A DNA stretch of 24,753 nt, from the IMG/VR virus record IMGVR_UViG_2648501392_000012; one strand, written 5' to 3'. Below the pieces are notes generated by a model, which did not search any database, was not told where the DNA came from, and worked only from the letters and a program-made list of their open reading frames with translations. Positions 429 to 23,852 of the stretch are shown here, in pieces. A program made the position numbers and the translations under genes. This DNA comes from a virus. Taxonomy: Duplodnaviria; Heunggongvirae; Uroviricota; Caudoviricetes. Each line of letters starts with the position of its first letter. The stretch's first letter is position 1.

Positions 429-993
429 ACTTAGATGTCCGTCTATATCAGATGGGCGTCTAAGTTACCAATTCTCGTCTGATGGCTACATACGGCGGTC
501 AGTTTACGCTTACAAAAAGCACTATCGGCATGCACAAAAAAATCTTTAATCGTATTTCTTGTGTCATTAATTGTTTGATGTTCAGATTGTTTTCCTCGCG
601 GGCTGGCGCGCCTCAGAAAGTAAAGCTTGTTGACAGGGGTAAACGTTCGGCAATAATTTTCTGCCGCATGCGGGTGTTGCATAAAACGTGCTACGTTCCT
701 TTATCGACAGGTCAGGTCACCGCTCACCCGCCGACGAGAAAGCAACACTGACATGCTAAAGCAAAAAATAGATGAATAAGTTGAGTTGTGCATATGTAGC
801 CTGACCGTCACAAAGTATATGGTGTCTGTACCAGTAAGATGATGGCCGGACTCTTTAAAAACGAGCTGACCTGCACAATACAGGATGGACTTAGCAATGG
901 CTGCTCCTGGCACAAAGCGGACAGTGATCACCGTTCTTACGACTACTTTCTGACTTCCTTCGTGACTTGCCCTAAGCATGTTGTAGTGCGATA

Positions 994-1019
994 CTTGTAA
1001 TGACATTTGTAATTACAAG
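994..1019 (+). promoter_or_regulatory. relBE operator/promoter palindrome (CTTGTAAT-N-ATTACAAG) immediately upstream of relB
   Basis: Perfect inverted repeat CTTGTAATGACATTTGTAATTACAAG overlapping the Shine-Dalgarno AAGAGGTG 6 nt before the relB ATG; RelB-RelE autoregulation at such an operator is established. Confidence 0.55.
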
Positions 1020-1030
1020 AGGTGTAAGAC

Positions 1031-1270
1031 ATGGGTAGCATTAACCTGCGTATTGACGATGAACTTAAAGCGCGTTCTTACGCCGCGCTTGAAAAAATGG
1101 GTGTAACTCCTTCTGAAGCGCTTCGTCTCATGCTCGAGTATATCGCTGACAATGAACGCTTGCCGTTCAAACAGACACTCCTGAGTGATGAAGATGCTGA
1201 ACTTGTGGAGATAGTGAAAGAACGGCTTCGTAATCCTAAGCCAGTACGTGTGACGCTGGATGAACTCTGA
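1031..1270 (+). CDS. relB: RelB antitoxin (79 aa)
   Basis: Protein MGSINLRIDDELKARSYAALEKMGVTPSEALRLMLEYIADNERLPF... recognised as RelB; length and position match the relBE operon; stop overlaps the relE start (ATGA-type coupling). Confidence 0.93.
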   Translation: MGSINLRIDDELKARSYAALEKMGVTPSEALRLMLEYIADNERLPFKQTLLSDEDAELVEIVKERLRNPKPVRVTLDEL

Positions 1271-1557
1271 TGGCGTATTTTCTGGATTTTGACGAGCGGG
1301 CACTAAAGGAATGGCGAAAGCTGGGCTCGACGGTACGTGAACAGTTGAAAAAGAAGCTGGTTGAAGTACTTGAGTCACCCCGGATTGAAGCAAACAAGCT
1401 CCGTGGTATGCCTGATTGTTACAAGATTAAGCTCCGGTCTTCAGGCTATCGCCTTGTATACCAGGTTATAGACGAGAAAGTTGTCGTTTTCGTGATTTCT
1501 GTTGGGAAAAGAGAACGCTCGGAAGTATATAGCGAGGCGGTCAAACGCATTCTCTGA
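1270..1557 (+). CDS. relE: RelE mRNA-interferase toxin (95 aa)
   Basis: Protein MAYFLDFDERALKEWRKLGSTVREQLKKKLVEVLESPRIEANKLRGMPDCYKIKLRSSGYRLVYQVIDEKVVVFVISVGKRERSEVYSEAVKRIL recognised as RelE. Confidence 0.93.
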   Translation: MAYFLDFDERALKEWRKLGSTVREQLKKKLVEVLESPRIEANKLRGMPDCYKIKLRSSGYRLVYQVIDEKVVVFVISVGKRERSEVYSEAVKRIL

Positions 1558-1628
1558 ACCAAAGCATGACATCTCTGTTTCGCACCGAAGGTGACACTTC
1601 TGCTTTGCGTTGACAGGAGAAGCAGGCT

Positions 1629-1784
1629 ATGAAGCAGCAAAAGGCGATGTTAATCGCCCTGATCGTCATCTGTTTAACCGTCATAGTGACGGCACTGGTA
1701 ACGAGGAAAGACCTCTGCGAGGTACGAATCCGAACCGGCCAGACGGAGGTCGCTGTCTTCACAGCTTACGAACCTGAGGAGTAA
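1629..1784 (+). CDS. hokD: Hok-family small membrane toxin (51 aa), HokD/RelF-like
   Basis: Hand translation (below the 60-aa ORF-track cutoff): MKQQKAMLIALIVICLTVIVTALVTRKDLCEVRIRTGQTEVAVFTAYEPEE*; single TM helix plus conserved Hok C-terminus; 70 nt after relE. Confidence 0.85.
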   Translation: MKQQKAMLIALIVICLTVIVTALVTRKDLCEVRIRTGQTEVAVFTAYEPEE

Positions 1785-1850
1785 GAGACCCGGCGGGGGA
1801 GAAATCCCTCGCCACCTCTGATGTGGCAGGCATCCTCAACGCACCCGCAC

Positions 1851-1882
1851 TTAACCCGCTTCGGCGGGTTTTTGTTTTTATT
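1851..1882 (+). terminator. Rho-independent terminator closing the relB-relE-hokD transcript
   Basis: AACCCGC-TTCG-GCGGGTT stem-loop followed by TTTTTGTTTTTATTTT. Confidence 0.6.
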
Positions 1883-2000
1883 TTCAACGCGTTTGAAGTT
1901 CTGGACGGTGCCGGAATAGAATCAAAAATACTTAAGTAGCGCGCAGGGATAAGAGGGATGGTCCCTTAAAGGGGAGAGCTAATTATCCGGAAGGATTCTG

Positions 2001-2252
2001 ATGATGAACATCGAAGAACTGCGTAAAATTTTTTGTGAAGATGGCCTCTATGCTGTGTGCGTTGAAAATGGAAATCTTGTTAGTCATTACCGCATTATGT
2101 GTTTGCGAAAGAATGGGGCTGCGTTAATTAATTTTGTGGATGCTCGGGTCACGGACGGATTTATCTTGCGCGAAGGTGAGTTTGTCACTTCATTACAGGC
2201 ATTGAAAGAGATCGGAATAAAAGCTGGCTTTTCTGCTTTTTCAGGAGAATAA
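2001..2252 (+). CDS. rem: Rem-like small prophage protein (83 aa)
   Basis: 83-aa ORF MMNIEELRKIFCEDGLYAVCVENGNLVSHYRIM... at the position rem occupies next to hokD in Qin-type prophages; assigned from recalled sequence and context. Confidence 0.65.
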   Translation: MMNIEELRKIFCEDGLYAVCVENGNLVSHYRIMCLRKNGAALINFVDARVTDGFILREGEFVTSLQALKEIGIKAGFSAFSGE

Positions 2253-2318
2253 ACTCATCTACAATCTTGCGCGGGGCTGAACTCCCGCTGAGTAACACCG
2301 TGCCACCGGAGAAAACCG

Positions 2319-2597
2319 ATGGCACGCAACGCAAAATATTACAATTCTGATAATTCGCCCGTTCTTGCCTGCACGCACGGGCGGTATTCTCACGCATTCA
2401 AGTCTGAATGGTTCCAGCACCCTCCATGCACTGCAGAACAGGCCGAATGGCTGATTCATTCTTACCGCAGGCGCGGGTTCGAGGTTAAGAAAGCTCTCAG
2501 TCTCGACTATCGGCACTGGATAATCTCTGTCAGGCTGCCTTATTCCGAACGCCCACCACGTGCGTCCCGCACTTTCCAGCAACGGATCTGGAGGTAA
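2319..2597 (+). CDS. Hypothetical 92-aa protein immediately upstream of ydfU
   Basis: ORF with GGAG 5 nt upstream of ATG, ending 1 nt before the proposed ydfU GTG start; no recognised family; overlapped by an antisense shadow ORF. Confidence 0.35.
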   Translation: MARNAKYYNSDNSPVLACTHGRYSHAFKSEWFQHPPCTAEQAEWLIHSYRRRGFEVKKALSLDYRHWIISVRLPYSERPPRASRTFQQRIWR

Positions 2598-2598
2598 C

Positions 2599-3648
2599 GT
2601 GCGGGTATTACTTAGACCTGTTCTGGTGCCTGAGCTTGGGCTGGTGGTCCTTAAGCCGGGCCGTGAATCCATACAGATATTTCATAATCCTCGAGTGCTG
2701 GTGGAACCGGAACCAAAAAGCATGCGTAATCTGCCATCCGGAGTCGTTCCTGCCGTTCGCCAGCCGCTGGCGGAAGACAAAACATTGCTGCCGTTTTTTA
2801 GTAACGAACGGGTGATTCGTGCTGCTGGCGGCGTTGGCGCATTGTCCGACTGGCTATTACGTCATGTTACATCCTGCCAGTGGCCTAATGGCGATTACCA
2901 TCACACTGAAACAGTCATTCACCGTTATGGTACCGGCGCAATGGTGTTGTGCTGGCACTGCGACAACCAACTGCGTGACCAGACATCGGAATCACTGGAG
3001 CTGCTTGCTCAACAAAATCTGACAGCATGGGTGATTGACGTCATCCGTCACGCAATAAGCGGTACGCAGGAGCGGGAATTATCTTTGGCTGAATTATCCT
3101 GGTGGGCGGTCTGCAATCAGGTGGTGGATGCACTACCTGAGGCTGTATCGCGTCGTTCGCTGGGATTACCAGCGGAAAAAATCTGCTCGGTGTACCGCGA
3201 AAGCGACATCGTACCGGGAGAGCAGACCGCCACCAGCATATTGAAACAACGCACAAAAAATCTTGCACCGTTGCCTTACGCCCACCAGCAACAAAAATCA
3301 CCACAGGAAAAGACGGTGGTAAGCATCACCGTTGATCCAGAGTCTCCGGAATCTTTCATGAAGCTGCCTAAACGTCGCCGCTGGGTTAAGGAGAAATACA
3401 CACGTTGGGTTAAGACACAGCCGTGTGCTTGCTGCGGTATGCCAGCCGACGATCCGCATCATCTGATTGGTCACGGGCAGGGCGGAATGGGAACAAAAGC
3501 ACATGATCTCTTTGTGTTGCCTTTGTGCAGAAAGCATCACAACGAGCTGCATACGGATACAGTGGCATTTGAAGATAAGTATGGCTCCCAACTGGAGCTG
3601 ATATTTCGTTTTATCGATCGCGCGCTGGCAATTGGCGTACTGGCGTAA
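2599..3648 (+). CDS. ydfU: DUF968-family prophage protein (YdfU-like), HNH-like Cys/His C-terminal domain
   Basis: Long ORF with C-terminal CACCGMPADDPHHLIGHGQGGMGTKAHDLFVLPLCRKHHNELH motif; start placed at GTG 2599 (GGAGG 4 nt upstream, 349 aa) rather than the upstream GTG 2560 used by the ORF track. Confidence 0.75.
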   Translation: MRVLLRPVLVPELGLVVLKPGRESIQIFHNPRVLVEPEPKSMRNLPSGVVPAVRQPLAEDKTLLPFFSNERVIRAAGGVGALSDWLLRHVTSCQWPNGDYHHTETVIHRYGTGAMVLCWHCDNQLRDQTSESLELLAQQNLTAWVIDVIRHAISGTQERELSLAELSWWAVCNQVVDALPEAVSRRSLGLPAEKICSVYRESDIVPGEQTATSILKQRTKNLAPLPYAHQQQKSPQEKTVVSITVDPESPESFMKLPKRRRWVKEKYTRWVKTQPCACCGMPADDPHHLIGHGQGGMGTKAHDLFVLPLCRKHHNELHTDTVAFEDKYGSQLELIFRFIDRALAIGVLA

Positions 3649-3661
3649 GTGGAGAACGAGC

Positions 3662-4414
3662 ATGAACCTTGAAGCCTTACCAAAATATTACTCCCCAAAA
3701 TCTCCAAAATTGAGCGATGACGCTCCAGCGACAGGCACCGGTTGTTTAACAATTACGGATGTAATGGCAGCGCAGGGGATGGTGCAGTCGAAAGCACCAC
3801 TTGGGTTGGCCTTATTTCTGGCAAAAGTTGGTGTTCAGGACCCTCAGTTTGCGATTGAAGGCCTGCTAAATTACGCGATGGCACTGGATAACCCGACATT
3901 GAACAAATTGAGTGAAGAAATCCGGTTACAGATTATTCCTTACCTCGTGAGTTTTGCCTTTGCTGATTACTCCAGGTCTGCGGCAAGTAAGGCTCGCTGT
4001 GAGCATTGTTCAGGTACGGGATTTTATAATGTATTGCGCGAAGTGGTGAAACACTACAGACGCGGGGAATCTGTAATCAAGGAAGAATGGGTGAAGGAAC
4101 TATGTCAGCATTGCCATGGTAAGGGCGAAGTCAGCACAGCGTGCAGAGGGTGTAAGGGTAAAGGGATTGTTCTGGATGAAAAAAGAACCCGGTTTCATGG
4201 CGTACCGGTATATAAGATTTGTGGGCGTTGTAATGGAAACCGGTTTAGTCGTTTACCGACCACGCTGGCACGACGTCATGTCCAGAAGCTGGTACCAGAC
4301 CTGACCGATTATCAGTGGTATAAGGGGTATGCGGACGTCATTGGTAAACTGGTAACAAAGTGCTGGCAGGAAGAAGCATACGCGGAAGCGCAATTGAGGA
4401 AGGTGACGAGATAA
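3662..4414 (+). CDS. quuQ: Late-gene antitermination protein Q (250 aa)
   Basis: Multiple CxxC / CxxH zinc-binding motifs (CEHCSGTG, CQHCHGKG, CRGCKGKG, CGRCNG); sits immediately upstream of a promoter/terminator pair and the lysis genes; start at ATG 3662 with GGAG 7 nt upstream. Confidence 0.8.
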   Translation: MNLEALPKYYSPKSPKLSDDAPATGTGCLTITDVMAAQGMVQSKAPLGLALFLAKVGVQDPQFAIEGLLNYAMALDNPTLNKLSEEIRLQIIPYLVSFAFADYSRSAASKARCEHCSGTGFYNVLREVVKHYRRGESVIKEEWVKELCQHCHGKGEVSTACRGCKGKGIVLDEKRTRFHGVPVYKICGRCNGNRFSRLPTTLARRHVQKLVPDLTDYQWYKGYADVIGKLVTKCWQEEAYAEAQLRKVTR

Positions 4415-4445
4415 ATGATTTTTGCTGAAGATGGCGACATGATGT

Positions 4446-4474
4446 TTGCATTTTTCAAAAAATATGGATAAAAT
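4446..4474 (+). promoter_or_regulatory. Putative late promoter PR' (TTGCAT-17 bp-TAAAAT); the Q-utilisation site is expected here
   Basis: -35 TTGCAT 4446..4451, 17-bp spacer, -10 TAAAAT 4469..4474, about 30 nt after the Q stop and ~45 nt before a terminator. Confidence 0.5.
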
Positions 4475-4518
4475 TTTTTCAACGATGGGCTTTGTATACC
4501 CGACGTTAAGAAAAAGTA

Positions 4519-4550
4519 GAAAACCCGCTGATGAGCGGGTTTTGTGCTTT
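4519..4550 (+). terminator. tR'-like rho-independent terminator downstream of PR'
   Basis: AAACCCGC-TGATGA-GCGGGTTT stem-loop followed by a T-rich tract. Confidence 0.6.
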
Positions 4551-4835
4551 AAATGGGGCAATGGTAATGTTGAATCTCATCCCGGGACTCATGTCTGTTA
4601 ACTTATTATTTAGCTGGTGACTTGGTTATTTGCCTGATGTTTAAAATGTTTTCTTCCAGTACAATGTCCCTAAACACAATGAGTCTGCTTATTATATTAT
4701 TAGCAGAGCTATTACGGCCAAAGTACAGCATAAGCTTTTAAAGCCAATCAACCAGTCATCAAGACAGACGGGGTTATTCATAAAAACTCTCCATGTGTGA
4801 TCCGATGGGGCCTGAAATTAAAGCTTTAATATAGC

Positions 4836-5048
4836 TCATGAAAGGTAAACATTGGCAGCTGAAGGGCCACGCAGACCATTTATCCGGCAAAATTCCACGC
4901 GTAATCCGGTGGTAATTTCTTCTGCATCGCGGAGATTGAGCGCTGAAACATGAAGCTGGACATCGATACGACCATCGGATGGGGTGATAAGACCCTTGCC
5001 GCTTTTGCCGTCAAAGGTTTTGACAATTCCTGTCATTTTACGGGACAA
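4836..5048 (-). CDS. cspF: Cold-shock-protein family paralog CspF (70 aa)
   Basis: Protein [38 protein letters not shown]... is a CspA-family cold-shock domain; recognised as CspF. Confidence 0.9.
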
Positions 5049-5348
5049 AAAAATTCCTTAATACTGATAACTTGGCGCACTATACACACGTTCCTGAAGA
5101 AAGCTATAGTTTTTTGATGGGGTTGAAGATGGCTGGATGTCTAAAATAAACATTGCTTCATATGTTCAACTATGCGTTAATGATTGCGTCGGTTTGAAGA
5201 ACAGACGATATACGAAGTAGTTTACTAAAGCAGTTCTCATTTCAGGTGTTATTCACTTATTCCTTCTTTGAGTCTCTCCAATTAAGTACGAAGTCGTTTC
5301 TGTTATGCAAACCATTTATGCCGAAAGGCTCAAGTTAAGGAATGTAGA

Positions 5349-5564
5349 ATGTCAAATAAAATGACTGGTTTAGTAAAATGGTTTAACGCTGATAAAGGTT
5401 TCGGCTTTATTTCTCCTGTTGATGGTAGTAAAGATGTGTTTGTGCATTTTTCTGCGATTCAGAATGATAATTATCGAACCTTATTTGAAGGTCAAAAGGT
5501 TACCTTCTCTATAGAGAGTGGTGCTAAAGGTCCTGCAGCAGCAAATGTCATCATTACTGATTAA
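5349..5564 (+). CDS. cspB: Cold-shock protein CspB (71 aa)
   Basis: Protein [38 protein letters not shown]... with canonical RNP1/RNP2 motifs; divergent from cspF. Confidence 0.9.
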
Positions 5565-5846
5565 AATTCATCGCTCGTCTGTATACGATAACGAAGAAGG
5601 CTGATGCCTGAGTAGAGATACGGACAGAGTAGTGAATATTGGATCTCTTTAATAAAAAGTAAGGAGGTCCAATACATGAAACAATGGCTAGCATATTTGG
5701 CAAAATCTTAATCAGGAAAAGTATGCTAACCATTGTGGTGAAGTGCAGGTTTGCTGCATGAATAGTTTTACAGCAGAAGCTAACTGCTGGCATGGCAAAA
5801 CAAAGTGCGTAAGTGGATGACTCCCACAAAAAGCACCACAATCTCA

Positions 5847-5872
5847 AACCCGCTCAGGCGGGTTTTTTATTA
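5847..5872 (+). terminator. Rho-independent terminator about 280 nt downstream of cspB
   Basis: AACCCGC-TCAG-GCGGGTT followed by TTTTTTATTAT. Confidence 0.6.
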
Positions 5873-5927
5873 TCTGCTTTAAATATATTATTAAAATATA
5901 AAAAATACTTGTTACTAATAAAATCAA

Positions 5928-6098
5928 TCAGGCTACAGCTTTAAGATTTGTCTGGAATACTTTGTTGCAATGAGGGCAGATCAAAAGGGCACCTTTTTGT
6001 ACTCTTGAAAAACTGTGTTCTGACTCTTGGGTGCAGTTTGGGCAGGAACATTTAACGAGATAATTACGGCGTGATTTTGAGTTTTTACGTTCTGACAT
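5928..6098 (-). CDS. Small Cys4 zinc-ribbon protein (56 aa), possibly the Qin small protein YnfU
   Basis: MSERKNSKSRRNYLVKCSCPNCTQESEHSFSRVQKGALLICPHCNKVFQTNLKAVA; two CxxC pairs (CPNC...CPHC); AGGAAA 6 nt upstream of the internal ATG (the ORF track shows a longer 73-aa version). Confidence 0.5.
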   Translation of the reverse strand: MSERKNSKSRRNYLVKCSCPNCTQESEHSFSRVQKGALLICPHCNKVFQTNLKAVA

Positions 6099-6317
6099 AG
6101 GCTTTTCCTGTATAAATGGCCGTATACAGTACACTAAATATGAAAACATTTCTCGTATTATTATTTTATATATGACTTTCTTTCAAAATAATTACCCACA
6201 TTTTTAATGTGTATGTTTTTTTAGCGCCGTTGAGAACAACGTGTGCTGTCAAAACTACCCCGTAGACTCCGATCTTTTCAAACATATTGCACCATCCGTG
6301 TACATCGGGGTGAGGAT

Positions 6318-6533
6318 ATGAAATCAATGGATAAGTTAACAACAGGTGTTGCCTATGGCACATCGGCGGGTAATGCTGGTTTCTGGGCATTGCAGTTACT
6401 CGATAAAGTAACTCCGTCACAGTGGGCTGCAATCGGTGTGCTGGGTAGCCTGGTTTTTGGCCTGCTGACGTATCTGACAAATCTTTATTTCAAGATTAAA
6501 GAAGACAGGCGTAAGGCTGCGAGAGGAGAGTAA
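6318..6533 (+). CDS. essQ: Class II holin, phage-21 S-type (pinholin) with dual-start motif MKSM
   Basis: [71 protein letters not shown]; two TM segments and a charged C-terminus; Met1/Met4 give antiholin/holin forms as in S21. Confidence 0.85.
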
Positions 6534-6537
6534 TCCA

Positions 6538-6845
6538 ATGACTCAAGACTATGAACTGGTTGTGAAAGGAGTCCGTAATTTTGAGAATAAAGTTACGGTA
6601 ACTGTAGCCTTACAGGACAAAGAACGCTTTGACGGTGAAATTTTTGACCTGGATGTCGCCATGGACCGTGTTGAAGGAGCTGCGCTGGAGTTTTATGAGG
6701 CAGCAGCCAGAAGGAGCGTCCGGCAAGTCTTCCTGGAAGTAGCAGAAAAATTGTCAGAAAAAGTTGAGTCTTATCTGCAGCATCAGTACTCCTTTAAGAT
6801 TGAAAATCCTGCCAATAAGCACGAGCGTCCTCATCATAAATATCT

Positions 6846-6849
<4 letters not shown>
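6538..6849 (+). CDS. ydfR: YdfR-like DUF1327 protein (103 aa) between holin and endolysin
   Basis: 103-aa ORF tightly packed between holin and endolysin (4-nt overlap with the endolysin start). Confidence 0.75.
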
Positions 6850-7873
<1,024 letters not shown>

Positions 7874-8234
7874 GGTAATATTAAATCGGAACATTTACAT
7901 CGCGGAATGTAAAATTTGAATAAAAAGGACTCTTCCATGAGCCAAAATTCCTGAAATCTTAAGGGTAAGATAAAAGGTCTTAATCAGAATGACACGTTTT
8001 ATTAATAAATAAAGCTATTCTTTCATTGCTGTGTTTTTCTTTACAAAAGTAATCCTTGCTATGGGTGGTTAATCATGCGTTAATGGTGTTCTGGTTTGTT
8101 ACAAATTTATCTGAAGCAGTCATTGTTATAATTTTATTATTTGTACCTCTTGAGATTTCCTTGTTGGTTTTTCTCTCTGATATTTTTTTCGGACCATTCT
8201 GCCCAAGGGCTAATTTCTTCAAAAGGTAATAATT

Positions 8235-8447
8235 ATGTCTAATAAAATGACTGGTTTAGTGAAATGGTTTAACCCTGAAAAAGGTTTTGGTTTCATCACG
8301 CCGAAAGATGGCAGCAAAGATGTGTTTGTCCATTTCTCAGCAATTCAGAGCAACGATTTCAAAACATTAACTGAGAATCAGGAAGTTGAATTTGGTATTG
8401 AGAACGGACCTAAAGGTCCTGCCGCTGTTCATGTAGTGGCGCTTTGA
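8235..8447 (+). CDS. cspI: Cold-shock protein CspI (70 aa)
   Basis: [70 protein letters not shown]. Confidence 0.9.
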
Positions 8448-8535
8448 GGTAGACAATATTACAAACCATATTCACTTTAGATGCCCGTGTTGTCATGGTT
8501 CCCAGTATAGAACATCATCTTTTGATGTTTCTGAC

Positions 8536-8646
8536 ATGAATCCTTTCGGGGCAAAATGTATCTTTTGTAAATCAATGATGATTACATTTGATAATATTTC
8601 ACAATACTTAAATGCCAGCCGTCTGTCGTTGGATTTAAAAAAGTGA
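8536..8646 (+). CDS. Short reading frame (36 aa from ATG) that is the C-terminal half of a start-less Cys4 zinc-ribbon frame open from 8437
   Basis: Frame reads ...RCPCCHGSQYRTSSFDVSDMNPFGAKCIFCKSMMITFDNISQYLNASRLSLDLKK*; the first CxxC pair lies upstream of the only in-frame ATG; followed by a hairpin terminator. Confidence 0.3.
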   Translation: MNPFGAKCIFCKSMMITFDNISQYLNASRLSLDLKK

Positions 8647-8649
8647 AAA

Positions 8650-8677
8650 TGAAGGCTCCTTCGGGAGCTTTTTTGCT
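8650..8677 (+). terminator. Putative rho-independent terminator after the cspI / zinc-ribbon unit
   Basis: GGCTCC-TTCG-GGAGCT stem followed by TTTTTTG. Confidence 0.45.
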
Positions 8678-8718
8678 TGGTGTCTATTCGATGGATACTC
8701 ACATACTACGGTAACATC

Positions 8719-8949
8719 ATGAAAAAAATCATAGTTTTTTTTAACTCTGAACCAGCAGTGGTAGTGCCAGCGATGACTGGAGTTAACACCATCATGCGTG
8801 AATATCCAAATGGCGAAAAAACACACCTTACTGTAATGGCCGCAGGGTTTCCATCTCTGACCGGAGATCATAAAGTCATTTATGTAGCCGCGGATCGACA
8901 TGTTACTTCAGAAGAAATTCTGGAAGCAGCAATAAGGCTCTTGAGTTGA
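8719..8949 (+). CDS. Hypothetical 76-aa protein
   Basis: ORF MKKIIVFFNSEPAVVVPAMTGVNTIMREYPNGEKTHLTVMAAGFPSLTGDHKVIYVAADRHVTSEEILEAAIRLLS; weak ribosome-binding site; no recognised family. Confidence 0.35.
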   Translation: MKKIIVFFNSEPAVVVPAMTGVNTIMREYPNGEKTHLTVMAAGFPSLTGDHKVIYVAADRHVTSEEILEAAIRLLS

Positions 8950-9120
8950 TTTGATGCTATTGCATTGATAATTCAGGAAAATTCTCTTTGTCTGTTTGTG
9001 TAAAATTTAGACTATCGTATGTTGATTATTGCGATGTTTCATCTTATCTTTTACACGTTTGCACCATATAATCGACTTACTGTGTAACTGGAAAGTCATA
9101 ACAGACTAAAAGAGGAAATG

Positions 9121-9293
9121 ATGAATATTGAAGACTTAAAAACAAAAGCAGAAGCAGATATTTCTGAATATATAACAAAAAAATTATTGAACTTAAGAAA
9201 AAGACCGGGAAAGAAGTTACCAGTATTCAGTTTACCGCACGGGAAAAAATGACGGGTCTTGAAAGCTATGATGTCAAGATTAATTTAATCTGA
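9121..9293 (+). pseudogene. gnsB: gnsB/gnsA-like gene split by an apparent 1-nt frameshift
   Basis: Frame 1: MNIEDLKTKAEADISEYITKKLLNLRKRPGKK... stops at 9250..9252; a second frame continues ...KEVTSIQFTAREKMTGLESYDVKINLI* to 9293, matching the Gns C-terminus (FTAREKMTGLESYDVKI); the shift falls in an A-rich run near 9200..9215. Confidence 0.5.
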
Positions 9294-9444
9294 TGTATTC
9301 AATAATAAAATTTATCCATAAACCTCGTTTTTACGGGGTTTTGTTATATTTGAATGGTTCCGAATATCTAAATCACAATTGTTGATGGTTTTTATTAAAC
9401 CAATGCAGTCCGGCTCAGGAGTGAGAGAAGCCGGACGTTATGGT

Positions 9445-9891
9445 TTAGCGTGGTAAGATCTGTGTAGTTTTCTGGATGCTTTCAGTAATTTTCTGGATGC
9501 TTTCAGTAAATAGTAATGAGTTATCAAAGGCATAGTAATATCTTTGGTGTTCCTGGATATTTGTAACCCATCGGAAAACTCCTGCTTTAGCAAGATTTTC
9601 CCTGTATTGTTGAAATGTGATTTCTTTTGATTTCAACTTATTATAGGAGGTCTCTATAAGATGTTTGTTTCTGGAGAATTTAACATTTACAACCTTTTTG
9701 AGTCCTTTTACTAACACTATGTTGTCGTTTTCTAACACAATGTGAATATTATCTGTGGCTAAATAGTAAATATAAAGTGAGACATTGTGACGTTTTAGCT
9801 CAGAATAAAATAATTCACAGTTTAAATCTTTACGCACTTGATCGAATATTTCTTTAAAAATGGCAGCCTGAGCCATTGGTAAACCTTCCAT
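9445..9891 (-). CDS. ydfO: YdfO-like DUF1398 protein (148 aa) with an internal 7-codon tandem duplication near the C-terminus
   Basis: Protein ...[44 protein letters not shown]; assigned from recalled YdfO sequence and Qin gene order. Confidence 0.7.
9468..9509. repeat. Perfect 21-bp tandem duplication (TTTTCTGGATGCTTTCAGTAA x2) inside the ydfO-like gene
   Basis: Counted directly: 9468..9488 is identical to 9489..9509; in-frame, giving [14 protein letters not shown]. Confidence 0.9.
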
Positions 9892-10176
9892 GTGATACGA
9901 TGGCGCGTAGTTAGCATTATCGTGTTTATTGTTTCAATCTGGTCTGACCTCTTTGTGTTTTGTTGATGATTTATGTCAAATATTAAGCCTGTTTTTAATG
10001 AATAGTGTTGATTGCGTAACAAAATTGAGCCTTGCTGGCATCCAGGAGGGATATGCAACCGACAGATGTATGTAAGGTCGATGTACTCAAACTTTCATAC
10101 TTTTCCTCTTTTATGCAGTAAGATTTGAAGTAATATTTTAACCGCTAGATGACGAGCAAACGCATGGAGCGACAAA

Positions 10177-10383
10177 ATGAATAAAGAACAATCTGCTGAT
10201 GAACTCTCGTTGGATCTGATTCGTGTAAAAAATATGCTTAATAGCACCATTTCTATGAGTTACCCGGATGTTGTAATTGCATGTATAGAACATCAGGTGT
10301 CTCTGGAAGCATTCAGGGCAATTGAGGCAGCGTTGGTGAAGCACGATAAGAATTCGAAGGATTATTCCCTGGTGGTTGACTGA
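10177..10383 (+). CDS. Hypothetical 68-aa protein
   Basis: [71 protein letters not shown] with GGAG 7 nt upstream of ATG. Confidence 0.5.
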
Positions 10384-10744
10384 GCACCATAACTGCTAAT
10401 CATTCAAACTATTTCACCTGTGACAGAGTCAATATCGCATTCTGTCACTGTCAGGCTAATACAGAGCTGCAATTCAACTACTGCAATGTCCTCGTAATTA
10501 GGTGAATTTACAATATCGTCCTGTTCGGATGCCGGTTGCATTGCTGAAGATGAGGCATTTATGGTTCGCATATTTTCCCCTCATGCTCGTCAGTCCTGTG
10601 CGTAGGAAGAAACAGGACACTCACACTAATTTGTGTGGGCATGCTGTGATGTCCTTCTGAATTATTCCTATGCCATTATGTAAAGCGCTGTATCAGATGC
10701 TCATCACGGCTGTCAGGCTGTCGGGTCCTCCCGGTGGGGGCCCC

Positions 10745-10900
10745 TGCCACGGGGCGGGAGCGTCGCGGAAAAAGGCTAGTTTTTGCATTTCCATGGCGGC
10801 GGCAGCATGTTTGGTAATTTATTGATAATTAAAAGTTATTTCTCTTTTTACCTGTACAATATTTTTTTCTCCCTGTCATTAGACCAGTTTGCAATTAATT
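10745..10900 (+). other. Putative cos packaging-site region (cosN-like GC-rich core plus T-rich TTTCTC elements) upstream of the small terminase gene
   Basis: GGGGCGGGAGCGTCGCGG at 10751..10768 resembles lambda cosN (GGGCGGCGACCTCGCGGG); downstream TTATTTCTCTTTTT and TTTTTTTCTCCCTGTC resemble cosB R elements; position matches lambda organisation. Confidence 0.3.
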
Positions 10901-10947
10901 GAAATATATAAATAAACATGATTTTCACCTGCCAGATGGAGTTGCTT

Positions 10948-11475
10948 ATGTCAAATGTGAGCGGGATCGGTGATGCTTATTACTGGAGTGTTTTTAAAAT
11001 CGCTGAGGCCTTTGGGCTTCACCGGGACACAGTAAAAAAACGGCTCCTCGCGGCCAACACTCCTGTGGCTGCGACTATCAGGGGGAACCCCGTTTACGCC
11101 CTGCAGCATGTCGGGCCAGCCCTGTTTAGTGTGAAGCATGAGGCAGCAGACTCTGTTCATGATCCATCCCGTATGGAGCCGAAAGAGAGAAAGGACTGGT
11201 ACCAATCTGAAAATGAAAGGATCAAGCTGGAAAAGGAGCAGCGAAAACTCATCCCCGTTGATGAAGTAGTCATCGTCTATTCGTCCATGAGAAAGGCTGT
11301 CGTCCAGGTTCTGGAGACAATTCCGGATGTTCTTGAACGCGATTGCGCCCTGACTCCTCAGGCCGTCGGCGTTGTGCAGCAGGCCATTGATGACCTGCGA
11401 TACACTCTTCAGGAAAAATCCTACGAGGCTTGTGCTGCTGAATTAATTCCTGATGAGGAAGGAGAGAGTCTCTAG
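10948..11475 (+). CDS. Terminase small subunit (Nu1-like DNA-packaging protein)
   Basis: About 175-aa acidic protein immediately upstream of the gpA-type large terminase; N-terminal HTH-like region (YWSVFKIAEAFGLHRDTVKKRL); GGAG 7 nt before ATG 10948. Confidence 0.65.
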   Translation: MSNVSGIGDAYYWSVFKIAEAFGLHRDTVKKRLLAANTPVAATIRGNPVYALQHVGPALFSVKHEAADSVHDPSRMEPKERKDWYQSENERIKLEKEQRKLIPVDEVVIVYSSMRKAVVQVLETIPDVLERDCALTPQAVGVVQQAIDDLRYTLQEKSYEACAAELIPDEEGESL

Positions 11476-11483
11476 GAGGAATA

Positions 11484-13583
11484 ATGGGTTTTTCATCAGC
11501 CCGAAATTTGGGAAGGGACATATCGGCAGGATTTTCCCCACCACGTCGCATGCCGATTTCGGAGGCTGTTAAAAAATTCATGCGTGTTCCCAAGGGGGCT
11601 GGTAACTCGGTGCCATGGGATCCTGAACTGACACCCTACATCATTGAGCCCATGAACTGCCTGGCATCGCGTGAATACGATGCGGTGATTTTTGTTGGTC
11701 CTGCGCGAACAGGGAAGACCATTGGTCTGATCGATGGATGGATTGTCTATACCATCGTTTGCGATCCTTCGGACATGCTCGTTGTGCAGATGACCGAAGA
11801 TAAGGCCCGCGAGCATTCTAAAAAGCGCCTCGACAGAACGTTCAGAAGCAGTGCGGCGGTAAAGAAAAGAATGAGTCCACGTCGTAACGACAATAATGTC
11901 CATGATAAGACGTTCAGGGATGGCTCGTTCCTTAAAATTGGTTGGCCCTCGGTCAACATTATGTCGTCGTCGGATTACCGGTTTGTCGCCTTAACCGATT
12001 ACGACCGTTTTCCGGAGAATATCGACAGCGAGGGTGATGGTTTCTCCCTGGCCTCAAAACGTACCACCACATTTATGTCCGCCGGGATGACTCTGGTGGA
12101 GAGCTCGCCGGGACGTGACATCTGCGACAGCAAATGGCGACGTAAGTCGCCTCATGAAGCGCCACCGACGACTGGTATTCTTTCCCTTTACAATCGTGGT
12201 GACCGCCGCCGCTGGTACTGGTCATGTCCGCACTGCGGTGAATATTTTCAGCCAGCCATGGATGCCATGACCGGCTACCGTAATGAACCGGATCCCTTTA
12301 AAGCCAGTGAGGCGGCGTATCTACTTTGCCCGCACTGCAGCGGCATTATCACTGCGGAGAAAAAGCGTGAGCTCAATAGTGCAGGAGTCTGGTTGCGTGA
12401 AGGTCAGGTCATTGATCGTAACGGCAACGTTTCCGGTGAACCGCGCCGCTCCCGTATCGCCAGTTTCTGGATGGAAGGGCCAGCTGCTGCGTATCAGACC
12501 TGGGCGCAACTGGTTTACAAATTACTGACTGCAGAACAGGAGTATGAAGCGACAGGAAGCGAAGAAACACTCAGGGCGGTTATCAACACCGACTGGGGAT
12601 TGCCTTATCTTCCTCGTGCCAGCATGGAGCAACGAAAAAGTGAACTGCTTGAGCAGCGGGCAGAGCCAGTTCCTTCCCGCAGTGTGCCGGATGGCGTTAA
12701 TTTCCTTGTGGCGACAGTGGATGTGCAGGCGGGACGTCATCGCCGTTTTGTGGTTCAGGTAACGGGCTATGGCAGTCGTGGCGAACGCTGGATTATTGAT
12801 CGTTACAACATCACGCAGTCATTGCGCAGTGACTGCGACGGGGAGAGCCAGCGAATTGATCCGGCCAGCTATCCGGAAGACTGGGATGTCCTGCTGACGG
12901 ATGTTTTTCATAAAAGCTGGCCGCTGGCCTCCGATCCTTCTCAACAAATGCGACTGATGGCAATGGCGGTGGACTCCGGCGGTGAAGACGGGGTCACTGA
13001 TAATGCCTATAAATTCTGGCGTCGTTGCCGTCGTGATGGCCTTGGTAAACGTATTTACCTGTTTAAGGGTGACAGCATCCGGCGCGCAAAACTGATCAGC
13101 CGTACATTCCCTGATAACACCGGACGAACGGGCCGCCGGGCGCAGGCCGCAGGTGATGTGCCGCTCTGGCTTCTTCAGACGGATGCCCTGAAAGACCGGG
13201 TGAATAACGCGTTATGGCGTGACTCGCCAGGTCCAGGCTATGTGCATTTCCCTGACTGGCTGGGGAGCTGGTTTTACGACGAACTGACGTATGAAGAGCG
13301 GAGCAGTGACGGGAAATGGAGTAAGCCGGGTCGCGGTGCCAACGAAGCTTTTGACCTGATGGTGTATGCCGAGGCTCTGGTCATTCTGCATGGATACGAA
13401 AAGATCCGCTGGCCGGATGCACCGGAATGGGCGAGCCGGGAGACCTGGCTGGAGTGTGTCCAGGACAGTACCGAACCGTCATCCTCACCGGAACCGGTAT
13501 CCACGCCTGTTAAAAAACAAAAACGGAAGAAAACAGTAACTGACGATGTTAACCCCTGGCTGACTTCCGGAGGATGGTTATGA
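11484..13583 (+). CDS. Terminase large subunit, lambda gpA family
   Basis: 699-aa ORF; Walker A motif VGPARTGKT; AGGAGG ribosome-binding site; CxxC...CxxC segment (CPHCGEYF...CPHCSG) as in gpA. Confidence 0.9.
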   Translation: MGFSSARNLGRDISAGFSPPRRMPISEAVKKFMRVPKGAGNSVPWDPELTPYIIEPMNCLASREYDAVIFVGPARTGKTIGLIDGWIVYTIVCDPSDMLVVQMTEDKAREHSKKRLDRTFRSSAAVKKRMSPRRNDNNVHDKTFRDGSFLKIGWPSVNIMSSSDYRFVALTDYDRFPENIDSEGDGFSLASKRTTTFMSAGMTLVESSPGRDICDSKWRRKSPHEAPPTTGILSLYNRGDRRRWYWSCPHCGEYFQPAMDAMTGYRNEPDPFKASEAAYLLCPHCSGIITAEKKRELNSAGVWLREGQVIDRNGNVSGEPRRSRIASFWMEGPAAAYQTWAQLVYKLLTAEQEYEATGSEETLRAVINTDWGLPYLPRASMEQRKSELLEQRAEPVPSRSVPDGVNFLVATVDVQAGRHRRFVVQVTGYGSRGERWIIDRYNITQSLRSDCDGESQRIDPASYPEDWDVLLTDVFHKSWPLASDPSQQMRLMAMAVDSGGEDGVTDNAYKFWRRCRRDGLGKRIYLFKGDSIRRAKLISRTFPDNTGRTGRRAQAAGDVPLWLLQTDALKDRVNNALWRDSPGPGYVHFPDWLGSWFYDELTYEERSSDGKWSKPGRGANEAFDLMVYAEALVILHGYEKIRWPDAPEWASRETWLECVQDSTEPSSSPEPVSTPVKKQKRKKTVTDDVNPWLTSGGWL

Positions 13584-13792
13584 ACCAGAATGATATCGAA
13601 GCCATGATTCAGCGTTATACGGAAGCTGAAATGGCGGTGCTGGACGGAAAATCCGTCACCTTTAATGGTCAGCAGATGACCATGGAAAACTTATCTGAGA
13701 TCCGGCAGGGACGGCAGGAGTGGGAGCGCCGCCTTGCGGCTCTGATTACACGACGACGGGGGCATCCCGGGTACCGGCTGGCGAGGTTCTGA
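13574..13792 (+). CDS. Head-tail joining protein, lambda gpW-like
   Basis: 72-aa ORF between terminase and portal; C-terminal ...RRRGHPGYRLARF parallels the lambda W C-terminus (...QRRRGPAGFYV). Confidence 0.7.
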   Translation: MVMNQNDIEAMIQRYTEAEMAVLDGKSVTFNGQQMTMENLSEIRQGRQEWERRLAALITRRRGHPGYRLARF

Positions 13793-15300
13793 TGGCAATT
13801 CTTGATGATGTGATTGGCGTTTTTTCACCAGGATGGAAAGCAGCAAGGCTGCGTTCCCGTGCGGTGATCCAGGCTTATGAGGCCGTAAAAACGACGCGGA
13901 CACACAAAGCCCGACGGGAGAACCGAACTGCCGACCAGTTAAGCCAGTACGGGGCCGTGTCGTTACGTGAGCAGGCCCGTTACCTTGATAACAACCACGA
14001 TCTGGTTATTGGTGTATTTGACAAGCTGGAAGAACGGGTGGTGGGGAAAAACGGGATTATTGTCGAGCCACATCCGGTATTACGCAATGGGGCCATTGCC
14101 CGTGACCTGGCTGCGGAGATTCGCACCCGATGGAGTGAATGGTCTGTCAGCCCGGAAGTCACCGGGCAGTTTACCCGTCCGATGCTGGAACGTCTGATGC
14201 TTCGTACCTGGCTGCGCGATGGTGAGGTGTTTGCCCAGATGGTTTCCGGGCGCATAAACAGCCTGGCGCCTTCTGCCGGTGTTCATTTCTGGCTGGAGGC
14301 GCTCGAGCCGGACTTTATTCCCATGACCAGTGATGAGAGCAACAGGCTGAATCAGGGCGTGTTTGTTGATGACTGGGGGCGTCCCGAAAAATATCTGGTG
14401 TATAAAAGCCGTCCCGTATCCGGACGGCAGATGGAAACCAAAGAAGTGGATGCAGAGCGAATGCTGCATCTTAAATTTGTTCGCCGTCTGCACCAGATGC
14501 GCGGGACGTCTTTGTTGTCCGGTGTGCTGATCCGCCTCAGTGCCCTGAAAGAATATGAAGATTCTGAGCTGACTGCAGCAAGGATCGCCGCTGCTCTGGG
14601 GATGTACATCCGGAAAGGCGACGGGCAGAGCTATGAACCGGATGGTAATGGCAGAAAGGAGAATGAACGTGAGCTTACCATTCAGCCGGGCATTATTTAC
14701 GACGATCTGAAACCCGGCGAAGAAATCGGAATGGTGAAGTCGGATCGCCCCAATCCTAACCTTGAAACTTTTCGTAATGGTCAGTTGCGTGCCGTGGCGG
14801 CGGGCAGTCGTCTGAGTTTTTCCAGTACAGCGCGCAACTATAACGGCACTTACAGCGCCCAGCGTCAGGAGCTGGTTGAATCCACTGATGGCTACCTGAT
14901 CCTGCAGGACTGGTTTATTGGTGCCGTCACCCGCCCGATGTATCGTGCATGGCTGAAACAGGCTGTGGCATCCGGTGTTATCAGGCTACCCCGCGATCTT
15001 GACCGTTCTTCACTGTATACCGCGGTGTATTCCGGACCAGTGATGCCGTGGATTGACCCTGTTAAGGAGGCTGAGGCCTGGAAAATCCAGATTCGTGGTG
15101 GAGCGGCGACAGAATCAGACTGGGTACGTGCTGGTGGTCGTAATCCGGATGATGTCAAACGTCGGCGCAAGGCCGAAATTGATGAAAACCGCAAGCTGGA
15201 TCTGGTATTTGATACCGATCCGGCCAGTGATAAAGGAGGCAGTAGTGCCGCAACGAAACGACAGGAGCCGCAGCACACCGACGACCAGTCCGAAGAATAA
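13792..15300 (+). CDS. Portal protein, lambda gpB family
   Basis: 502-aa ORF from ATG 13792, overlapping the gpW stop (TGATG); size and position match lambda portal. Confidence 0.85.
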   Translation: MAILDDVIGVFSPGWKAARLRSRAVIQAYEAVKTTRTHKARRENRTADQLSQYGAVSLREQARYLDNNHDLVIGVFDKLEERVVGKNGIIVEPHPVLRNGAIARDLAAEIRTRWSEWSVSPEVTGQFTRPMLERLMLRTWLRDGEVFAQMVSGRINSLAPSAGVHFWLEALEPDFIPMTSDESNRLNQGVFVDDWGRPEKYLVYKSRPVSGRQMETKEVDAERMLHLKFVRRLHQMRGTSLLSGVLIRLSALKEYEDSELTAARIAAALGMYIRKGDGQSYEPDGNGRKENERELTIQPGIIYDDLKPGEEIGMVKSDRPNPNLETFRNGQLRAVAAGSRLSFSSTARNYNGTYSAQRQELVESTDGYLILQDWFIGAVTRPMYRAWLKQAVASGVIRLPRDLDRSSLYTAVYSGPVMPWIDPVKEAEAWKIQIRGGAATESDWVRAGGRNPDDVKRRRKAEIDENRKLDLVFDTDPASDKGGSSAATKRQEPQHTDDQSEE

Positions 15301-15313
15301 TTCCTGGTTCAGG

Positions 15314-17272
15314 ATGCAGGCTGGTCACCAGAGTGACGCGGATATTTATATTTATGACGAGATTGGTTTCTGGGGTGTTACAGCGAAGCAGTTTATCAGT
15401 GATCTGAATGCACTGGGCGATATCACCCACATTAATCTCCATATTAATTCACCGGGTGGCGATGTCTTTGAAGGCATCGCCATTTTTAATGCGCTGAAAA
15501 CACATGGTGCGTCCATTACCGTTTATGTCGACGGTGTGGCGGCGTCAATGGCGTCGGTCATTGCGATGGTAGGAAACCCGGTCATTATGCCGGAAAACAC
15601 CTTCATGATGATTCATAAACCATTTGGCTTTACGGGCGGTGATGCGGAGGACATGCGCACCTATGCCGACCTGCTCGATAAAGTTGAGGCGGTTCTGTTA
15701 CCCGCTTATGCACAGAAAACCGGGAAAACCACCGATGAAATTGCTGCCATGCTGGCGGATGAGACCTGGATGTCCGGTGCCGAATGTCTGGCACAGGGAT
15801 TTGCTGATCAGGTGACACCAGCCGTTAAGGCAATGGCATGTATTCAGTCAAAACGTACAGAGGAATTTAAAAAGATGCCGGAATCCATTCGAAATATGAT
15901 TACTCCGCCACGCAACAGTGCTCCACGCGTACAGGATGATGGACCTGCAGCCTCCCGGACGCCAGTGCAGGCAGCAGCACCCGTGGTGGATGAAAACAGC
16001 ATCCGTGCGCAGGTCTTGGCAGAGCAAAAAGCGCGTGTAAACGGTATTAATGATCTGTTTGCCATGTTTGGCGGGCGTTATCAGTCGTTGCAGACTCAGT
16101 GTCTTGCCGATCCTGAATGTTCGCTGGAGCAGGCCCGCGAAAAGCTGTTGAACGAGATGGGGCGCGAGTCCACGCCATCCAATAAAAATACCCCGGCTCA
16201 TATTTATGCCGGTAACGGTAATTTTGTGGGGGACGGGATCCGCCAGGCGCTGATGGCGCGCGCCGGGTTTGAAAAAACTGAACGTGATAATGTCTACAAC
16301 GGGATGACCCTGCGTGAATATGCCCGTATGTCACTGACTGAACGTGGTATTGGTGTTTCCAGTTATAACCCGATGCAGATGGTCGGTGCGGCGTTCACAC
16401 ACAGTACGTCTGACTTCGGTAATATTCTGCTGGATGTTGCGAACAAAGCCATTCTGCAGGGCTGGGAAGATGCCCCTGAAACCTATGAACAGTGGACGCG
16501 GAAAGGTCAGTTGTCTGATTTTAAAATTGCCCATCGTGTGGGTATGGGGGGCTTCAGTGCTCTGCGTCAGGTGCGTGAAGGGGCAGAATATAAATACGTC
16601 ACCACCGGAGATAAACAGGCCACTATTGCACTGGCGACCTATGGCGAGCTGTTCAGTATCACCCGTCAGGCCATTATCAATGATGATCTGAATATGCTGA
16701 CCGATGTCCCGATGAAGCTGGGCCGTGCGGCGAAATCCACTATTGCCGATCTGATTTATGCCATTCTGACGTCTAACCCGAAAATCTCCACAGATAATGT
16801 AAGTCTGTTCGATAAAGCGAAACATGCAAACGTACTGGAGAGCGCGGCAATGGACGTGGCATCGCTGGATAAAGCCCGCCAGTTGATGCGCGTTCAGAAA
16901 GAGGGTGAGCGTCATCTGAATATTCGTCCTGCGTTCGTACTGGTACCGACGGCGATGGAGTCTGTTGCTAACCAGGTCATTCGCTCCTCAAGTGTCAAGG
17001 GGGCTGACATTAACGCCGGTATTATTAACCCGGTGAAAGATTTTGCGACCGTTATTGCAGAGCCTCGTCTTGATGATAACAGCCAGACCACCTTCTACCT
17101 GGCTGCGTCCAAAGGCTCCGATACGATTGAAGTGGCTTATCTCAACGGTGTGGATACGCCATATATTGATCAGATGGAGGGCTTCAGTGTGGATGGCGTG
17201 ACAACGAAAGTGCGTATTGACGCTGGTGTTGCGCCAGTTGATCACCGCGGCCTGGTGAAATGTACGGCGTAA
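15314..17272 (+). CDS. Tripartite capsid gene: ClpP/S49-type prohead protease, scaffold-like linker and HK97-fold major capsid protein in one ORF
   Basis: N-terminal ...IYIYDEIGFWGVTAKQFISDLNAL...INSPGGDVFEGIAIFNALK...VDGVAASMASVIAMVG (ClpP-like); central Ala/Gln-rich linker; C-terminal ~350 aa capsid-like; start placed at the in-frame ATG just after the portal stop. Confidence 0.8.
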   Translation: MQAGHQSDADIYIYDEIGFWGVTAKQFISDLNALGDITHINLHINSPGGDVFEGIAIFNALKTHGASITVYVDGVAASMASVIAMVGNPVIMPENTFMMIHKPFGFTGGDAEDMRTYADLLDKVEAVLLPAYAQKTGKTTDEIAAMLADETWMSGAECLAQGFADQVTPAVKAMACIQSKRTEEFKKMPESIRNMITPPRNSAPRVQDDGPAASRTPVQAAAPVVDENSIRAQVLAEQKARVNGINDLFAMFGGRYQSLQTQCLADPECSLEQAREKLLNEMGRESTPSNKNTPAHIYAGNGNFVGDGIRQALMARAGFEKTERDNVYNGMTLREYARMSLTERGIGVSSYNPMQMVGAAFTHSTSDFGNILLDVANKAILQGWEDAPETYEQWTRKGQLSDFKIAHRVGMGGFSALRQVREGAEYKYVTTGDKQATIALATYGELFSITRQAIINDDLNMLTDVPMKLGRAAKSTIADLIYAILTSNPKISTDNVSLFDKAKHANVLESAAMDVASLDKARQLMRVQKEGERHLNIRPAFVLVPTAMESVANQVIRSSSVKGADINAGIINPVKDFATVIAEPRLDDNSQTTFYLAASKGSDTIEVAYLNGVDTPYIDQMEGFSVDGVTTKVRIDAGVAPVDHRGLVKCTA

Positions 17273-17292
17273 ACGTCGCAGACAACAACTCT

Positions 17293-17317
17293 GATGGCCC
17301 GTAAGGGCTTTTTTTGT
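17293..17317 (+). terminator. Rho-independent terminator after the capsid gene
   Basis: GGCCC-GTAA-GGGCT followed by TTTTTTTG. Confidence 0.55.
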
Positions 17318-17358
17318 ACCTGAAATCAGCCCCTGAACGGGGCTGTGCGGAGACAGTT

Positions 17359-17950: not shown

Positions 17951-17961
17951 TGAGGTGTGGG

Positions 17962-18938: not shown

Positions 18939-18948
18939 GGAGGTGGTA

Positions 18949-19692: not shown

Positions 19693-19711
19693 CAGGACGA
19701 TACTCATCATT

Positions 19712-19736
19712 TGCCCCGGTTATCCGGGGCTTTTTT
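19712..19736 (+). terminator. Rho-independent terminator after the major tail gene
   Basis: GCCCCGG-TTAT-CCGGGGC followed by TTTTTTG. Confidence 0.55.
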
Positions 19737-19749
19737 GCAGGTGGAGAAC

Positions 19750-23843: not shown

Positions 23844-23852
23844 GAGTCTCTG

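Follow-up and report, generated by a model that had tools for sequence, protein, structure and literature searches.

A putative zinc-ribbon gene of a Qin-like prophage, ynfU, and its linkage to cold-shock genes in Enterobacteriaceae

Identity, translation and expression signals of ynfU

The window, by which we mean the whole 24,753-nucleotide stretch of viral DNA analysed here, carries a 56-aa gene on its minus strand between the cold-shock gene cspB and a holin gene. A sequence-only reading had described this gene as a zinc-ribbon gene with two CxxC pairs (CPNC and CPHC), a basic N-terminus and a ribosome-binding site of its own, and had raised the possibility that it is YnfU of the Qin prophage. 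All of this is borne out by the features listed below, by the RefSeq CDS coordinates and by the comparisons that follow. The same reading placed the gene antisense to all of its neighbors, which is right for cspB and essD and wrong for cspF, which lies two genes away on the same strand. The features of the locus, in window coordinates, are as follows.

4836-5048, minus strand: cspF, from the open reading frame and annotation; the third member of the cspF/cspB/ynfU cassette
5188-5580, plus strand: cspB (CDS 5349-5564) with its cspA-type thermoregulator 5'UTR, from the open reading frame and Rfam RF01766 (158.8 bits against a gathering threshold of 78)
5846-5865, no strand assigned: GC-rich hairpin AAACCCGC-TCAG-GCGGGTTT, flanked by A and T runs, from the terminator scan
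5928-6098, minus strand: ynfU CDS, from the open reading frame, RefSeq, PF23499/NF038384, conservation, dN/dS and the AF2 model
6106-6109, minus strand: Shine-Dalgarno sequence AGGA, 7 nt before the ynfU ATG
6126-6154, minus strand: candidate cross-genus promoter, with a -10-like TACTGT (6131-6126), a weak -35-like GAGAAA (6154-6149) and a 17-nt spacer
6157-6186, minus strand: alternative sigma-70-like promoter TTGAAA-18-AATAAT, from a consensus scan (10 of 12 matches)
6318-6533, plus strand: essD (holin), the first lysis-cassette gene, divergent from ynfU; context, not part of the ynfU unit

The open reading frame starts at an ATG at 6098, ends at 5928 and encodes MSERKNSKSRRNYLVKCSCPNCTQESEHSFSRVQKGALLICPHCNKVFQTNLKAVA (56 aa plus stop). 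Its coordinates and strand are exactly those of the RefSeq CDS of ynfU (b4776), which has the product name 'putative zinc-binding protein YnfU' (WP_211180497.1). The surrounding 701 bp (5700-6400) are 100% identical to Escherichia coli K-12 MG1655 and likewise to many other strains; among the 5,426 complete E. coli genomes, 1,662 contain a match to this stretch, in almost every case just once. Homology searches led to a dedicated small-protein family, for which Pfam PF23499 (YnfU) scores 107.3 bits against a cut-off of 27 (E = 3.5e-31; residues 1-49 on model positions 1-49 of 49) and NCBIfam NF038384 scores 79.4 bits against a cut-off of 36 (E = 1.1e-22; model positions 1-51 of 52). The protein exceeds these curated cut-offs over the full model length and is identical to the type member of the family (K-12 b4776, Qin). 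Like the family, it is a stand-alone protein within the range of 50-60 aa, and its two CPxC knuckles, 18 residues apart, enclose S-E-H-S-F and R-V-Q-K-G. Length, knuckles and SEHSF block are equal to those of the known gene, there is no difference at the gene level, and we regard the identity of the open reading frame as ynfU as practically beyond doubt. The gene is already known. Its description dates from 2019, RefSeq annotates it, Pfam and NCBIfam each devote a family to it, and there are several independent validations of its translation.

Weaver et al. 2019 (bioRxiv 10.1101/511675) detected ynfU by Ribo-RET, the profiling of stalled initiation complexes, and confirmed the protein by western blotting of a chromosomal SPA-tag fusion, in which it reached the highest level among their newly found small proteins. 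In their data the gene was well expressed at 37 °C in LB; they also pointed out the two CPXC zinc knuckles and reported a 'moderate match' in modelling to the zinc domain of PA0128. The gene was re-detected genetically by PIRT-seq, and in RiboReport it has full Ribo-seq coverage and a TIS peak. These published K-12 data make ynfU a real, translated gene and supply the translation signal on which the sequence-only reading had made its proposal depend. Our own comparisons agree indirectly, through the dN/dS of 0.11 and the conservation of the Shine-Dalgarno sequence and of the start codon. Other papers mention ynfU only as a Qin gene still to be studied or as a possible metal-binding protein. 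In the searchable literature we found detection and motif only, and no study of the function, metal content or binding partners of YnfU.

An alignment of 49 upstream regions from different genera shows almost no variation in the CAGGA that precedes the ATG. In the same alignment, the -10-like hexamer (-33 to -28 of the ATG) has the family consensus TAtgGT with invariant T, A, G and T, and the weak -35-like hexamer contains one invariant G. We infer from this pattern that the conserved block is a sigma-70-type promoter with a short leader (predicted 5'UTR of ~20 nt). The best site of the promoter scan in the region is TTGAAA-18-AATAAT, which would give ynfU a 5'UTR of ~50 nt; it is specific to the Escherichia lineage and is not conserved as such in other genera. 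Alternative sigma factors were considered by comparing the block by eye with the sigma-32, sigma-E, sigma-54 and sigma-S consensus sequences, none of which fitted convincingly. In genomic SELEX, Shimada et al. 2017 (PMC5493296) had located RNAP-sigma32 and RNAP-sigmaE peaks in the 'essQ-cspB' spacer, for which no gene was then annotated. By approximate mapping from K-12 coordinates these peaks lie near window positions 5855 and 5997, and ynfU lies within the spacer; neither the sigma-32 nor the sigma-E consensus matched the conserved block upstream of ynfU.

Conservation 5' of the ATG extends across genera for only ~70 nt. A conserved RNA element at this position, considered on account of a VYGxRP extension shared by database homologs, was rejected when RNAalifold predicted 0 base pairs for the 49 upstream regions. 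No conserved pairing was found by RNAalifold in the 90 nt upstream of ynfU, the E. coli hairpin CTGTATA...TATACAG shows no covariation in other genera, and Rfam gave no match on ynfU, though it matched cspB and the downstream csp gene. Some 70 conserved nucleotides with no predicted pairs point to a promoter plus a Shine-Dalgarno sequence, not to a riboswitch or thermometer. The 'VYGxRP' N-terminal extensions themselves are spurious and arise because annotations start at an upstream in-frame ATG at 6149, which gives a 73-aa open reading frame (added part 6099-6149, minus strand) without conservation outside Escherichia. This 73-aa long form is used by some phage and metagenome annotations, and it overlaps the conserved promoter block.

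On the other side of the gene, the hairpin at 5846-5865 is the predicted intrinsic terminator of cspB on the plus strand and probably also terminates ynfU on the minus strand, in which case it would be bidirectional. The same AAAAACCCGC...GCGGGTTTT hairpin separates ynfU from a convergent csp gene in Escherichia, Citrobacter, Raoultella/Klebsiella and Superficieibacter loci.

Conservation, selection and fold of YnfU

A pattern scan with one genome per species gave 80 loci, which belong to Enterobacteriaceae save for a few records with non-enterobacterial labels that we take to be contamination. The homologous open reading frame is intact in all 80 loci (51-60 aa), with an aligned ATG start in 78 and GTG in 2. 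In the ynfU frame the median of the pairwise dN/dS values is 0.11; the complementary antisense frame has 0.25 and the remaining four have ~1-2. Most of the variability falls on third codon positions. Such features are far from what chance would give, and the gene is under strong purifying selection in its own frame.

All 80 species-level loci keep C19, C22, C41 and C44 unchanged, as the proposal of a zinc ribbon had demanded of its homologs. The Cys4 description of the earlier reading holds for these four CxxC cysteines and misses a fifth, C17, in the total count. C17 is kept in 77 of 80 close homologs and is absent from distant members, and therefore is not a required ligand. Among 75 column-comparable sequences, the further invariant residues are R4, K5, N12, L14, P20, S26-E27-H28-S29, R32, K35, G36, L39 and P42. 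The best conserved block lies between the knuckles, with SEHS present in all 80 loci (SEHSF in 75, SEHSY in 5), and the segment after C44 is variable among family members. The family is small: an exhaustive profile search of 1.84 billion representative proteins returned only 33 members. The most distant of these lack C17 and keep CPxC-x3-S-x-H-S-x2-[RK][VI]-x5-L[IL]-CPxC-x2-[LI][FY]; the signature of the family is His28 with the serines on either side of it.

YnfU has a net charge of about +6.6, a pI of 9.6 (9.4-10.0 across the family) and a mass of 6.4 kDa, with 6 Lys/Arg among its first 16 residues and its knuckles at residues 19-22 (CPNC) and 41-44 (CPHC). Five cysteines and two histidines occur in its 56 residues, and no hydrophobic or membrane segment is present. 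The AF2 model (pLDDT 75.8) has four strands and one short helix in a zinc-ribbon topology. Searches by structure and by sequence found no informative remote relatives, and the predicted fold appears to be that of a generic zinc ribbon.

A similar size and CxxC...CxxC topology is found in the N-terminal zinc ribbon of PhnA/YjdM (PF08274; PA0128, PDB 2AKL), to which 16 of 25 YnfU family members gave weak matches. YnfU falls short of that family, with 22.4 bits against a cut-off of 30.8 and a PDB profile E-value of 0.7-5, and it is without the C-terminal PhnA domain of PhnA/YjdM. Matches to ribosomal and ribosome-associated zinc ribbons (eL42/L44e, eL37, bL33 and the small Zn-finger protein 9o17_AZ of the Methanosarcina acetivorans 70S ribosome) are not statistically significant, and this resemblance may serve as a lead, not as evidence of membership.

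Genomic surroundings of ynfU

A gene for a cold-shock domain (CSD) protein lies within 1.2 kb of ynfU in 57 of the 80 loci, and two such genes do so in 32. The commonest layout (25 of 80 loci) is that of the window, with a convergent cspB-like gene next to ynfU and a divergent cspF-like gene beyond it. A cspB-like gene adjoins ynfU in most of the 57 csp-linked loci, and a cspF-like gene accompanies it in 36 of the 80, as summed over the layout classes. The csp gene can be convergent, divergent or tandem upstream, and these several arrangements imply that the linkage has outlived rearrangement. When loci were clustered by their outer flanks, 28 distinct contexts resulted, and ynfU was csp-adjacent in 21 of them and accompanied by lysis genes in only 3. 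Genomes of 4.6 Mb carry about nine csp genes, from which we roughly estimate a chance expectation of ~0.4 csp genes over all 80 intervals together.

Of 14 loci tested, 13 have the Rfam cspA thermoregulator on the cspB-like neighbor. The cspF/cspB/ynfU cassette is AT-rich, with 35-40% GC compared with 46-52% in the flanking phage genes of the window, and occurs in at least 21 flank contexts, on plasmids and in a few phages. It is a recurrent cassette, chromosomal in most Enterobacteriaceae. We found no statement of the ynfU-csp linkage in the searchable literature. The linkage turns an 'uncharacterised prophage small protein' into a testable hypothesis on RNA chaperoning or translation and does not by itself establish function. 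Nor does linkage to a thermoregulated csp gene, strong as it is, amount to membership of a CspA-type regulon; ynfU has no cspA-like structured 5'UTR.

Two further observations concern the csp genes of the window. A second Rfam cspA thermoregulator match at 8090-8474 on the plus strand (115.7 bits against a gathering threshold of 78) belongs to a cspI-like gene downstream of the lysis cassette; both this match and that at 5188-5580 are full-length, and the prophage has at least three csp genes. Just beyond cspF lies a 29-aa open reading frame (4692-4781, minus strand), annotated in K-12 as hypothetical protein WP_120795389.1, for which tblastn gave matches beside the cassette in 7 of the 80 loci, all of them from Escherichia or Citrobacter.

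The framing of the gene as part of a prophage late region proved too narrow. Homologs of the Qin-type lysis proteins, the only lysis proteins used as probes, lie within 5 kb of ynfU in only 10 of the 80 species-level loci, compared with 57 of 80 for a CSD gene. In the called-gene neighborhoods of Klebsiella, Enterobacter and Lelliottia the neighbors are metabolic or housekeeping genes, not phage genes, and the distant members of the family are lone chromosomal genes, all without a csp neighbor. Only 8 of 50,697 phage records carry ynfU. They include Qin-like Escherichia phages such as HannyBb, a Klebsiella phage with a 59%-identical copy that is divergent beside a different holin, and phage PHB10, in which ynfU occurs together with a csp pair; plasmid records with ynfU number 10. 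We conclude that ynfU is no component of the phage lysis or late machinery. In lambdoid Qin-like prophages the cassette is cargo (a moron) in the slot between Q and the holin gene, a well-known lambdoid cargo site. It resembles other lambdoid morons of the Q-to-holin interval as an AT-rich insert with a putative promoter and terminator of its own; unlike them, it is found in chromosomes, independently of phages, more often than in phages.

Taken as a whole, the window does not come from K-12: only 510-9954 aligns to MG1655 (98.8%). The remainder (1-509 and 9955-24753) contains large open reading frames, for example at 11484-13583, 15053-17272 and 20419-23514, and the annotations of its best genome matches name a terminase large subunit, a ClpP-like protease/capsid fusion and a tape measure. 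Whereas Qin of K-12 is a remnant, the prophage of the window is a fuller Qin-like element and possibly intact. About 100 nt downstream of its Q-type antiterminator gene ydfT (3662-4414) there is a GC hairpin at 4520-4543, a perfect palindrome with A and T runs (AAAACCCGC-TCATCA-GCGGGTTTT), which lies at the position expected for the late terminator tR'. Q must override tR' before transcription gets to cspF, cspB, ynfU and the holin gene.

Two phage contexts differ in what is annotated or found beside ynfU. In the HannyBb deposit (L089, PP925841), the region 3200-6168 shows ~20 tiny 'hypothetical' open reading frames and misses cspB and cspF. The region aligns with window positions 4357-9095 at 96.6%, with ynfU annotated as the 73-aa long form, and it contains no tRNAs or tandem repeats; we therefore rejected the run of tiny open reading frames as an unusual feature and regard it as an annotation artefact over the same cspF/cspB region. 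In a Superficieibacter prophage context, an Rfam match to the STnc100 sRNA (L037, 4740-4869, minus strand; 68 bits against a gathering threshold of 47), which has no counterpart among the Rfam matches of the window, lies just upstream of the ynfU homolog, with a holin-like gene on its far side.

Candidate functions of YnfU

In the explanation that we favor, ynfU would be expressed from its own promoter and Shine-Dalgarno sequence and would have its hairpin terminator in common with convergent cspB. YnfU would have a flexible N-terminal tail rich in Lys/Arg and, after it, a single zinc ribbon. One structural Zn2+ is expected at C19/C22 and C41/C44, and the invariant S-E-H-S / R-V-Q-K-G segment would form an exposed hairpin-helix, probably the functional surface. 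The basic tail and the ribbon together would bind nucleic acid, with RNA or the ribosome as the probable target, and would act in the physiological setting of the CspA-type RNA chaperones. That YnfU may bind nucleic acid had already been suggested from its letters, and it is plausible. Prophages would carry the cassette as cargo, with a function outside the lysis and late machinery. As a whole, from ynfU and the csp cassette to a nucleic-acid binder, we rate this explanation slightly above even. Its mechanistic part, nucleic-acid binding in relation to Csp proteins, is tentative, and on balance we would not expect it to hold. Against a Csp-related mechanism stand the abundance of YnfU at 37 °C, set against the cold induction of cspB, and the lack of a cspA-like leader on ynfU. 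Expression at 37 °C together with the absence of a cspA-like 5'UTR or Rfam match means that cold-shock co-regulation is not indicated. A csp neighbor is also absent in 23 of the 80 loci, and the linkage could reflect mere co-mobility of small AT-rich islets.

Several other functions can be weighed against the same observations. YnfU might be a small protein-binding regulator whose zinc ribbon docks on a larger protein, such as a chaperone, RNA polymerase or an enzyme; one version of this would be a minimal DNL-type (Tim15/Hep1-like) Hsp70 escort. We think this adaptor role unlikely. It draws on a weak Tim15-like pattern, given that the DNL-type zinc finger (Tim15/Zim17/Hep1; PF05180) aligns with YnfU at both knuckles and at an S-x-H...KG..LI segment, and the score of 13.5 bits against the required 27, with no DNL after C44, places YnfU outside that family. 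A role in late gene expression, which the sequence-only reading had suggested, has been weakened by the finding that most family members are not in prophages. In this role YnfU would adjust the expression of holin and endolysin, or its promoter would do so by firing against the late transcript that Q antiterminates. The position of ynfU is suggestive in this respect: it lies divergent beside the holin and antisense to the late transcript in Qin-like phages including HannyBb, and it takes the same position in the unrelated Klebsiella phage with a different holin. Zinc-finger late activators exist, and Ogr/Delta of P2 offers a precedent. However, the Cys spacing of YnfU is x2-x18-x2 as against x2-x22-x4 in Ogr/Delta, and Ogr_Delta is absent among the Pfam matches listed. 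Qin-type lysis genes are near in only 10 of 80 loci, and only 8 of the 50,697 phage records have ynfU. Its neighbors in Klebsiella, Enterobacter, Lelliottia and the distant members are metabolic genes, and the Q-to-holin slot is well known for receiving cargo. Strong purifying selection in non-phage contexts argues for a phage-independent function, and we consider regulation of late genes or lysis very unlikely.

The occurrence of ynfU as cargo in prophages, on plasmids (the 10 records) and in variable chromosomal islets would also fit a defence, exclusion or toxin-type gene, with YnfU either protecting its host against other phages or serving as a toxic or addiction peptide, and Qin of K-12 has toxin systems nearby, including relBE, hokD and gnsB. 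Yet PADLOC gave no match to YnfU at E <= 1, and PHROGs gave only weak matches to families of unknown function. No conserved antitoxin-type partner gene was seen, YnfU accumulates to high levels in healthy cells, and it lacks a hydrophobic or membrane segment. Such a role has, in our view, an even lower probability. Least probable of all is a role in metal handling, with the small YnfU serving as zinc buffer, sensor or chaperone. The presence of five Cys and two His among only 56 residues would suit this role, and both annotation and literature describe YnfU only as 'zinc-binding'. However, zinc ribbons normally have one structural Cys4 site, at which metal is not exchanged, and neither C17 nor H43 is conserved across the family at large. 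No zinc-homeostasis genes lie near ynfU in the contexts examined (Klebsiella, Enterobacter, Lelliottia and the distant members), and a silver-nanoparticle evolution study yielded just one low-frequency intergenic polymorphism in the ynfU/cspB interval.

Within the favored explanation, a more specific proposal comes from functional analogy. Lin28 and plant cold-shock domain proteins fuse a CSD and CCHC retroviral-type knuckles in one polypeptide. In the ynfU loci, a CSD and a Cys-rich zinc module are likewise found together, here on adjacent genes (57 of 80 loci); unlike the Lin28-type fusions, YnfU is a separately encoded Cys4 zinc ribbon, often on the opposite strand. YnfU might be a dedicated partner of accessory CspB/CspF-type proteins on RNA or the ribosome, and so a split bacterial analogue of the eukaryotic binders that combine a CSD with zinc knuckles. 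We regard this partnership as quite unlikely, below the adaptor role in probability and above the regulation of late genes. If it were true, the cassette would be a mobile functional unit spread by prophages and plasmids among Enterobacteriaceae.

A minor observation on the content of the cassette comes from Lelliottia, in which a YnaE-family gene lies directly upstream of ynfU (L006-L008, 5506-5740) and the csp gene is convergent downstream. This gene is a paralog of the cold-shock-induced ydfK/ynaE of Qin and Rac, a hint that the cassette may be accompanied by other small genes associated with cold shock.
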